DNA of 64,000 nucleotides from an uncultured Actinomycetes bacterium. GTDB lineage: Bacteria; Actinomycetota; Thermoleophilia; RBG-16-64-13. A program made the position numbers and the translations under genes. The first letter of the stretch is position 1. Each line of letters opens with the position of its first letter. The notes under the pieces were generated by a model. That model was not told the origin of the DNA. It saw only the letters and a program-made list of their open reading frames with translations, and did not search any database. The stretch covers positions 425-64,424 of the forward strand of contig CAWEJM010000029.1 of NCBI GenBank assembly GCA_963809395.1. The letters are read 5' to 3'. Positions 43,952 to 44,757 of the stretch are shown piece by piece.

Positions 43952-44757
43952 TCACTCGTACCACTCCGGCGCCTTCCTCCAGGTCTCGAACTCCGGCATG
44001 CTGTGGGAGCAGAACAGCTCGGCGTCGTACTCGGCGGCCAGATCCTTCAGTCTCTGCAGCGATCGGGTGGCGGCGACGGGGTCGAGGTGAAAACCGCCGA
44101 TGACCATCATCTCCAGGTTCTTGGGCGTCATGGCGGCATCGTCGGTGAACAGCATGGGCCTGCGCCCCTCCAGTTCCACCAGCAGGCTGTAGTGGCCGGC
44201 GGAGTGGCCCAGGGTTTCGAATAGCCAGACGCCGAGGGCGAACTCCACGTCGCCGCTCAGAAGCTGGAATTCGGGCGAGAGGGTGGGATCCACATTCGCG
44301 GGGATCTCCTGGCGGTGCTTGACCAATTGGGGCGCGAACCAGGCCACCGCCCCGTAGCTCAGCAGTTCGAACAACTCGGGGTTCTTCGCCTGCTCGTACT
44401 CCTTCTCGTGACACACGACCTTGGCGCCGGGGAACAGATGGTTGGCGCCGCAGTGGTCGATGTGGAGGTGTGAGTTGATGACGTGGGTCACATCCTCCGG
44501 CCGGTATCCCACCTTGGCCAGCTGCGCGGGCAAGGTCTGGTCCGGCGACTGGATGGGCTGGTCTTGAGGGCACGTATTTCTGCATGAACTCCAGGTCGAA
44601 GCCGGTGTCGTAGAGGAAGAGGCCGTCCTCGTGCTCGATGAGGACGCTGTAGACGGGGAAGCGGATGTCTCCAGCAAGGCCCGCGATTCCAGTAGACCTT
44701 GTGGCCGTCGATGGCCATCGATCCCCCATCCAAGAGACAGACTCGAGTGGGTTTCAT
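43952..44757 (-). CDS. Metallo-beta-lactamase-fold lactonase, 4-pyridoxolactonase-like
   Basis: [56 protein letters not shown], SH. Confidence 0.88.

Follow-up and report, generated by a model that had tools for sequence, protein, structure and literature searches.

What does a lactone-hydrolysing enzyme do in the midst of genes for molybdenum enzymes that handle aromatic compounds? The question is raised by a gene in a 64,000-nucleotide stretch of contig CAWEJM010000029.1 (assembly GCA_963809395.1), from an uncultured actinobacterium of the Thermoleophilia; this whole stretch is referred to below as the window, and the genome it comes from as the source genome, or G000. A first-pass annotation had likened the gene to the 4-pyridoxolactonase of Mesorhizobium loti and proposed that it marks an anaerobic branch of vitamin B6 or hydroxypyridine degradation. 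We find that it belongs instead to a sister clade of the 4-pyridoxolactonases, with a methionine at the position of an active-site tyrosine, and that members of this clade adjoin genes for an Amidohydro_2 decarboxylase and for a molybdopterin subunit resembling pyrogallol hydroxytransferase. The reading that we favour, with a probability of roughly 0.55, is that the enzyme would hydrolyse an aryl lactone and feed a decarboxylase and an oxygen-independent polyphenol route, taken as a general scheme. The gene itself is defined by its reading frames, Pfam family PF00753, PDB entry 3aj3 and an alignment with orthologs:

43952..44757, minus strand: lactonase gene, metallo-β-lactamase (MBL) fold, Met-clade relative of 4-pyridoxolactonase

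The coding sequence starts with an ATG (44757–44755) that has AGGAGG seven bases ahead of it, and ends with a TGA (43954–43952). As assembled, it runs through three reading frames and would encode 267 amino acids (aa) if two extra bases were removed. A DNA alignment shows exactly two single-base insertions that the window has and five intact orthologs lack, and both of the resulting +1 shifts fall inside the first 190 nt of the gene:

44673..44677: first 1-nt insertion, GGGCCTTGCTGG against GGGCC-NGCNGG in the orthologs; the frame shifts after WNRGP
44567..44570: second 1-nt insertion, GTGCCCTCAAG against GTG-CCTCAGG in the orthologs; the frame shifts after MQKYVP

Frame 1 holds LLDGGS..WNRG, frame 2 a second block, and frame 3 the segments NSH..., DPV and AEL..SH; the third frame, a piece of 202 aa, runs from QDQPIQ to APEWYE and the stop codon. 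The six motifs quoted in the first-pass annotation are all present on the minus strand of the window within the coordinates of the gene, but they are spread over the three frames, and that annotation had read straight across both insertions without noticing the breaks.

Whether the breaks are real bears on everything that follows. Contigs of four metagenome runs were compared with positions 43400–45900 of the window, and those of three runs (X1, X2 and X4) cover the insertion sites. The extra base at 44673 is missing in every covering contig of these runs, as is the one at 44567 (three contigs of X1, as well as X2 and X4), and one 498-nt environmental contig crosses both sites and shows exactly two gaps. 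The extra bases in neighbouring genes (43556–43562, as well as 45237/8 and 45721/2 in the Amidohydro_2 decarboxylase gene) are likewise missing in environmental contigs, and all indel-type differences across the compared 2.5 kb are single extra bases on the window side. Being 93%–98% identical to the window, the environmental contigs come from relatives and not from the same genome; among the sequencing runs listed, the best share of words with the source genome was 0.17, and no RNA run was included. When intact proteins of relatives were mapped onto the window, 16 frame switches were counted in 8 of the 16 mapped genes over 6191 aa, among them genes for a DEAD-box helicase and transporters, whereas the same procedure applied between two relatives as a control gave none over 7305 aa. 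The window count corresponds to 0.86 per kb, so that single-base indels affect its coding sequence at about this rate throughout. Because the frameshifts are absent from both orthologs and environmental contigs, and half of the mapped genes are shifted too, we conclude that they are consensus errors of the assembly and that the lactonase is intact in nature. That the gene is a genuine pseudogene, dead in the organism, is highly improbable: the assembled sequence does contain two +1 shifts, and the contigs used for comparison derive from relatives rather than from source reads, but the same kind of damage extends to housekeeping genes (half of the 16 mapped genes are hit, at 0.86 per kb, and the control shows none), the extra bases are missing from 93%–98% identical contigs of three runs, and apart from the two sites the sequence is conserved like that of the intact orthologs. 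Programmed frameshifting was rejected since the shifts are scattered over half of the mapped genes. The source genome (2.54 Mb in 33 contigs) is rated 65.8% complete, an estimate that may be depressed by broken marker genes.

The 202-aa piece aligns with residues 66–267 of 4-pyridoxolactonase (PDB 3aj3; E = 3.4e-51, 177 bits), sharing 89 of 201 residues (~44%, counted from the printed alignment), whereas the best AiiA entry in the PDB reaches only E = 1.3e-23 and 87 bits. Membership in the superfamily is evident from the Pfam family PF00753 (Lactamase_B), with 55.6 bits against a cut-off of 22.7, and the window contains the metal-ligand motifs HLHIDH, GHSAGH, DDAAM and SHS. An intact ortholog from the relative G013 is 87% identical to the window over the aligned frame-3 part (89% by genome search). 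Two NCBIfam models were compared, namely NF047925, the equivalog model of 4-pyridoxolactonase (EC 3.1.1.27; cut-off 325 bits), and NF045699, that of AiiA (cut-off 375 bits). The intact ortholog scores 345.2 bits with the former and fails the latter with 131.7, and the window piece, a part of a gene split by frameshifts, scores 242.6 and 104.6 bits, respectively. The likeness to 4-pyridoxolactonase proposed earlier is therefore borne out over the full length, and it is closer than that to N-acyl homoserine lactone (AHL) lactonases, both in structure matches (177 against 87 bits) and in model scores. Judged from its sequence, the window protein is a metal-dependent lactonase of the MBL fold, predicted to be cytoplasmic and to bind a dinuclear metal centre.

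The phylogeny refines this picture. A homolog search returned 600 proteins, and the tree draws on the 120 that were listed; its 141 tips comprise 118 of these (two fell outside the accepted length of 240–300 aa), 21 sequences taken from loci, the piece from the window and one outgroup. The window gene falls in a clade of 58 tips (support 0.908) whose sister is a clade of 76 tips (support 0.994). The column that tells them apart lies three residues past the bridging Asp, at the position of Tyr194 in AiiA, and holds Tyr in 76 sequences, Met in 58, His in 4, Cys in 2 and Glu in 1; the sister clade comprises 74 sequences with Tyr and two with Cys, and we refer to the two groups as the Met clade and the Tyr clade. 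Where 3aj3 has IDAAYT, the window has DDAAMT and hence lacks the active-site Tyr. Eight columns in total separate the clades (Met clade/Tyr clade: A16/V, K21/H, M59/V, D66/E, I100/F, L129/P, M210/Y and S253/D), three of which flank metal ligands (I100/F, M210/Y and S253/D), and in both clades at least 98% of the sequences retain the ligand-associated residues H97, H99, D101, H102, H185, D207 and H252. The Mesorhizobium enzyme is assigned to the Tyr clade not as a tip of the tree but by the residues of 3aj3, which are those of the Tyr clade at all eight positions, and by its score of 375.7 bits with a core Tyr-clade protein. The tree and the signature residues thus place the window gene in a Met-type sister clade, outside the clade of Mesorhizobium 4-pyridoxolactonase: of the checks proposed for the earlier annotation, the alignment confirms that the gene is closer to 4-pyridoxolactonase than to AiiA, and the phylogeny, read with the signature residues, puts it beside that enzyme rather than with it. 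The scores obtained with NF047925 show the same division, as the Met-clade proteins reach 319.8–346.6 bits (seven of eight above 325, all within ~22 bits of this cut-off) and the core Tyr-clade proteins 454–476.

A third branch of the family has His at the Tyr/Met position (G000:C12:4530-5162, that is, locus L025, and loci L027, L028 and L031). The source genome's own lactonase paralog is of this His type; it scores 301 bits with NF047925, below the cut-off, and lies in a context of LUD and CCG Fe-S genes.

Gene neighbourhoods divide the clades completely. Neighbours were pooled over 27 Met-clade and 74 non-Met loci, where a match had to cover 25% or more of the query and reach an identity of 35%–45%, depending on the family. 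Loci L001–L010 (short duplicates) and L023 (a truncated copy) were left out; as many metagenome contigs are short, the counts are lower bounds. Next to Met-clade lactonases we found the Amidohydro_2 decarboxylase in 19 of 27 loci, the large molybdopterin subunit resembling pyrogallol hydroxytransferase (alpha) in 11, a class I/II aminotransferase in 10 and the Fe-S subunit (beta) in 4, and none of these families in any of the 74 non-Met loci. Conversely, a short-chain dehydrogenase/reductase (SDR; 48/74), a 3-hydroxyacyl-CoA-dehydrogenase-type protein (3HCDH; 50/74), a class V aminotransferase (11/74), a class II aldolase (16/74) and the large subunit of a xanthine-oxidase-family enzyme (27/74) adjoin non-Met lactonases and were found in 0 of the 27 Met-clade loci; Pfam matches on 46 of the 130 proteins neighbouring non-Met lactonases confirmed the families found there. 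We take four of these families to be those of the Mesorhizobium B6 pathway, with the SDR as pyridoxal dehydrogenase, the 3HCDH-type protein as FHMPC dehydrogenase, the class V aminotransferase as pyridoxamine-pyruvate aminotransferase and the class II aldolase as HMPDC decarboxylase.

The linkage recurs in several arrangements and data sets. Relatives of the same family show the orders beta–lactonase–alpha (G013), lactonase–alpha (G011 and two other metagenome-assembled genomes), alpha–Amidohydro_2–lactonase (G021, G023, G006 and locus L043) and lactonase–Amidohydro_2 (G008 and G024). A scan of metagenomes added 80 loci, 14 of them Met-type and all of these at least 62% identical to the query; the Amidohydro_2 gene, alpha or both flank the lactonase in 13 of the 14, whereas alpha is found in 0 of the other 66 and a distant Amidohydro_2 (32%) in only two. 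The alpha family occurs in 16 of the 41 genomes searched, all from one family, and these include all nine that have a Met-clade lactonase; a single genome may contain as many as 22 matches (G011, 22; G021, 21; G004, 20). Of the six genome matches that score best against the lactonase-linked alpha, five adjoin a Met-clade lactonase, so it is a specific alpha orthogroup that goes with this enzyme.

Several further features of these neighbourhoods deserve mention in their own right. In Tyr-clade loci from soil metagenomes (L058, L061, L066, L069, L098, L111 and others), a three-subunit Mo hydroxylase of the xanthine oxidase family often stands alongside the SDR and 3HCDH genes; such loci may represent an aerobic B6 pathway modified so that the Mo hydroxylase performs one oxidation. 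In G023, the genes that immediately follow the module (L021:3763-9676) encode a D component of the 2-hydroxyglutaryl-CoA-dehydratase type, a thiamine-pyrophosphate enzyme and a tungsten-type aldehyde:ferredoxin oxidoreductase, three enzyme types typical of strict anaerobes. The alpha–decarboxylase–lactonase module has a further neighbour at L020:1445-2491 and L023:8747-9799, an aldo/keto reductase whose C-terminal extension is rich in Cys and Fe-S-like; the two copies are 71% identical and come from a single genus, and their best PDB match is the lactone-forming L-galactose dehydrogenase, at a weak 1e-17. A role as pyridoxal reductase was rejected for this protein, given only the weak matches to L-galactose dehydrogenase and its adjacency in one genus only.

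In the window, the lactonase forms part of a minus-strand operon with the following genes:

46721..49300, minus strand: alpha1, molybdopterin subunit like that of pyrogallol hydroxytransferase, several frameshifts (4 frame switches)
45887..46709, minus strand: Fe-S beta subunit that resembles the small subunit of pyrogallol hydroxytransferase, with a single frameshift
44790..45817, minus strand: Amidohydro_2 decarboxylase of the ACMSD/LigW/gamma-resorcylate type, directly upstream of the lactonase, frameshifted
41343..43918, minus strand: alpha2, a second pyrogallol-hydroxytransferase-like molybdopterin subunit, starting 33 nt past the lactonase stop and a member of the orthogroup found with the lactonase elsewhere
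40986..41288, minus strand: small conserved open reading frame (ORF) with no family match; a TetR regulator occupies the same position in L012, L013 and L015
39835..40875, minus strand: second Amidohydro_2 decarboxylase paralog (PF04909, 2.5e-45; its ortholog matches 5-carboxyvanillate decarboxylase at E = 1.2e-55)
37945..39800, minus strand: CocE/NonD-family (S15) hydrolase, candidate esterase, at the operon end (TIGR00976, 329.9 bits for the ortholog; two frameshifts)

The earlier description of the gene as embedded between two Mo-enzyme subunits is thus right in substance, with alpha2 33 nt downstream, and beta and a further alpha upstream past the Amidohydro_2 gene; in G013, beta and alpha immediately flank the lactonase. 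In the latter genome, a 73-aa ORF upstream of beta (L011:8869-9090) matches only the C-terminal end of alpha and looks like a remnant of the alpha1 gene, which is whole in the window and in L032. Elsewhere in the window, fragments of a LuxC-like acyl-CoA reductase and a LuxE-like acyl-protein synthetase adjoin a thioesterase (8254–10677). The segment 26000–32000 has a G+C content of 0.74–0.75, a strong AT skew of 0.33–0.37 from ~28 kb on and long overlapping ORFs on both strands, including one of 1123 aa (29826–33197, minus strand); a search of this segment for tandem repeats found none.

The neighbouring proteins are recognizable in some detail. Two alpha orthologs (L011 and L020) match the large subunit of the Pelobacter acidigallici transhydroxylase (4v4c_A) with 1215.6 and 1226.5 bits over 856–866 residues, and H144, Y152, R153, D174, S175, W176 and Y404 are identical between alpha and 4v4c_A; among these residues are presumably the Ser that ligates Mo and the His, Asp and Tyr that take part in catalysis. 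Alpha also matches the Pfam family PF21423 (AhtL-like_1st), and the beta ortholog of G013 matches 4v4c_B over its full length (E = 1.7e-82, 280.2 bits) as well as Pfam Fer4_11. The alpha and beta next to the lactonase accordingly have the sequence hallmarks by which a pyrogallol hydroxytransferase would be predicted. Intact orthologs of the Amidohydro_2 protein (L021 and L032) retain the ExH...H...D pattern, as E7-x-H9, the histidine of YLHP and the aspartate of GSDYPY, and match gamma-resorcylate and 5-carboxyvanillate decarboxylases at E = 3e-55. Among the best 120 of 2256 matches, this partner decarboxylase forms a large environmental group of its own, in which all proteins are environmental and actinobacterial, none is named and no link to Gordonibacter appears.

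A pathway that could receive the product of the Mo enzyme is encoded elsewhere in the source genome. On contig C12, at ~200000–224000 (L112 and L113), four AthL-like alphas and a beta lie beside a run of Cyclase, 3HCDH, SDR, cupin and BKACE genes, together with a flavin mononucleotide reductase and IclR and PAS regulators; the genes of this island are frameshifted like those of the window. In the anaerobic phloroglucinol pathway of Clostridium scatologenes (PMC10470551), DPGC, TfD, PGR and TAL belong to the families Cyclase, 3HCDH, SDR and BKACE, respectively, so that the source genome carries all four enzyme families of that pathway. In view of the full-length transhydroxylase match (1215–1227 bits), the retained active-site residues and the phloroglucinol families, the substrate is better indicated by the Mo enzyme, which points to polyphenols, than by the lactonase; the first-pass annotation, which had regarded the lactonase as the best substrate clue of the cluster, did not prove right on this point.

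On these grounds we infer the nature of the substrate and the order of the steps as follows. The lactonase would open a lactone in which a hydroxylated aromatic ring carries the carbonyl directly, as is the case in 4-pyridoxolactone, phthalides, isocoumarins and lactones of the ellagic-acid type. The hydroxy-aryl carboxylate freed in this way would lose its carboxylate without oxygen through the adjacent ACMSD/LigW-type Amidohydro_2 protein, and the resulting polyphenol may be the substrate of the adjacent transhydroxylase-like Mo subunit, which would shift a hydroxyl to yield a product of the phloroglucinol type. This product could then enter the anaerobic phloroglucinol pathway, and the CocE/NonD hydrolases may free the lactone or the acid from esters. 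A parallel from the gut is offered by Gordonibacter, in which, according to a preprint, an amidohydrolase with annotated carboxy-lyase activity converts ellagic acid to urolithin M5 before Mo-dependent dehydroxylation (bioRxiv 10.64898/2025.12.05.692447). The Gordonibacter ellagic acid lactonase was rejected as a homolog of the window lactonase, since it has an amidohydrolase fold and not an MBL fold.

A number of points weigh against this scheme. The loci come from related organisms, so that their counts represent a pattern rather than independent trials. No beta is found nearby in 8 of the 15 Met-clade loci of at least 6 kb that have alpha, the Amidohydro_2 gene or both, and the partner genes are absent at L034, L016 and L017. 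The polyphenol model does not account for the class I/II aminotransferase at 10 of 27 Met-clade loci, a neighbour reminiscent of the aminotransferase in B6 clusters. Decarboxylases of the LigW type as a rule require a hydroxyl group in the position ortho to the carboxylate; ellagic acid lacks one after ring opening. The substrate of the Met clade is itself a prediction from amino acid sequences, and because seven of eight Met-clade proteins pass NF047925, it may equal 4-pyridoxolactone. Finally, the Gordonibacter parallel is one of pathway logic. A bolder version of the scheme, which we regard as tentative and rather doubtful, is that a Met-clade lactonase, an ACMSD-type decarboxylase and a dedicated transhydroxylase paralog form an undescribed oxygen-independent module with which Thermoleophilia-like actinobacteria of soils and sediments open and decarboxylate recalcitrant aromatic lactones (e.g., ellagic acid and lactones of the urolithin, phthalide or isocoumarin type) and pass the products to the phloroglucinol pathway; the module would then be one cassette in a set of transhydroxylase paralogs that numbers up to ~20 in a genome, with every paralog adapted to a polyphenol of its own.

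The idea closest to the original annotation is that the enzyme is a 4-pyridoxolactonase in a new oxygen-independent route of vitamin B6 degradation, in which the lactonase converts 4-pyridoxolactone to 4-pyridoxate, the Amidohydro_2 protein decarboxylates this acid directly and the Mo enzyme replaces the flavin oxygenase acting on the hydroxypyridine. The closest solved structure is indeed a 4-pyridoxolactonase, the NF047925 cut-off is reached by most Met-clade proteins examined (7/8), and 4-pyridoxate, an ortho-hydroxy acid, suits the chemistry of an ACMSD-type decarboxylase; moreover, Amidohydro_2 decarboxylases such as PicC are reported to act on hydroxypyridine carboxylates (PMC10142695). 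An aminotransferase recurs beside the Met-clade lactonase (10/27 loci), and the Fe-S aldo/keto reductase, which could make a lactone from a lactol, adjoins the module in one genus. Against this stand the position of the gene in a sister clade, with the change from Tyr to Met in the pocket and seven other fixed differences, and the presence of B6 partner families, which mark the non-Met loci, in 0 of 27 Met-clade loci. The recurring aminotransferase belongs to class I/II and was rejected as a pyridoxamine-pyruvate aminotransferase, since no such enzyme is among the PDB matches that it gives with E ≤ 1e-10. In the source genome (65.8% complete), a search for a pyridoxal-dehydrogenase-type SDR and the other B6 partners (3HCDH, class V aminotransferase and class II aldolase) yielded no homolog that exceeds 45% identity. 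The Mo hydroxylases known to act on pyridines are members of the xanthine oxidase family, which is found beside Tyr-clade rather than Met-clade genes, whereas the Mo subunit at this locus keeps the full active site of pyrogallol transhydroxylase. We therefore consider the anaerobic B6 or hydroxypyridine branch unsupported as it was proposed, and unlikely.

Two other roles can be weighed against the same evidence. The lactonase could act downstream of the Mo enzyme, or in rescue, on an aliphatic or enol lactone that arises as the ring is broken down, for example triacetic acid lactone, derived from triacetate. Triacetate is an intermediate of the phloroglucinol pathway, which this genome encodes, and relatives such as AiiA hydrolyse non-aromatic gamma-lactones; however, the lactonase lies outside the phloroglucinol island on contig C12, its tightest partner is a decarboxylase for which that part of the pathway has no use, and its nearest characterized relative acts on an aromatic fused lactone, which together make this role quite unlikely. 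Quorum quenching by hydrolysis of AHLs is hardly credible, even though the fold is the same, the similarity to AiiA and AttM is detectable and NCBI names some members of the cluster ‘N-acyl homoserine lactonase family protein’: the equivalog models of AiiA, AttM, AhlS and YtnP yield 49–132 bits against cut-offs of 375–475, the Tyr used by AiiA is replaced with Met, and the gene context is catabolic. An aryl-lactone hydrolase that feeds a decarboxylase and a polyphenol route thus remains the reading that we prefer.

A literature search found no report that couples a pyrogallol hydroxytransferase to a lactonase, and no paper listed by further searches, on Thermoleophilia or Gaiellales or on amidohydrolases and decarboxylases, reports the linkage; the lactonase–decarboxylase–transhydroxylase module accordingly appears to be undescribed. 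To our knowledge, only one enzyme of the pyrogallol-transhydroxylase type has been studied in depth, and a lactonase–decarboxylase pair tied to one alpha orthogroup provides an assayable handle on this expanded family. Should the enzyme act on an aromatic lactone of tannin or fungal origin, the module would allow oxygenase-free breakdown of ‘recalcitrant’ polyphenols in anoxic soils and sediments, which, if true, bears on the enzyme-latch view of carbon storage. The results also carry a warning for annotation: the Met clade sits on the edge of the NCBI equivalog model for 4-pyridoxolactonase, and because NF047925 just admits this sister clade with its non-B6 context, pipelines will report B6 catabolism where there is probably none.

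Comparison with characterized systems sets the locus in perspective. Mesorhizobium 4-pyridoxolactonase (3aj3, 4kep and 4keq), the nearest solved structure, has the same MBL fold, a similar length (~268 aa) and the same metal ligands and can be aligned with the window protein from end to end, but the window protein has Met in place of the pocket Tyr and differs at seven more discriminating positions. The AiiA-type AHL lactonases have in common with it the fold, the HxHxDH...H...D...H ligands and the chemistry of lactone hydrolysis; they are, however, much more distant, and the window protein has Met at the position of AiiA Tyr194. The partner decarboxylase shares the ExH, His and Asp pattern with the LigW, gamma-resorcylate and 2,3-dihydroxybenzoate decarboxylases of the ACMSD subfamily (E = 3e-55). 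The alpha and beta subunits align over their full length with Pelobacter pyrogallol transhydroxylase and are identical to it in the residues that we take to form the active site, although alpha is here one of many paralogs, often without an adjacent beta, and is coupled to a lactonase and a decarboxylase. Finally, the gut route from ellagic acid to urolithins follows the same logic, whereby a lactone is opened, CO2 is lost and a molybdopterin enzyme rearranges or removes ring hydroxyls; the Gordonibacter ‘EAL’ lactonase, though, has the amidohydrolase rather than the MBL fold, and the organisms and their habitats differ.

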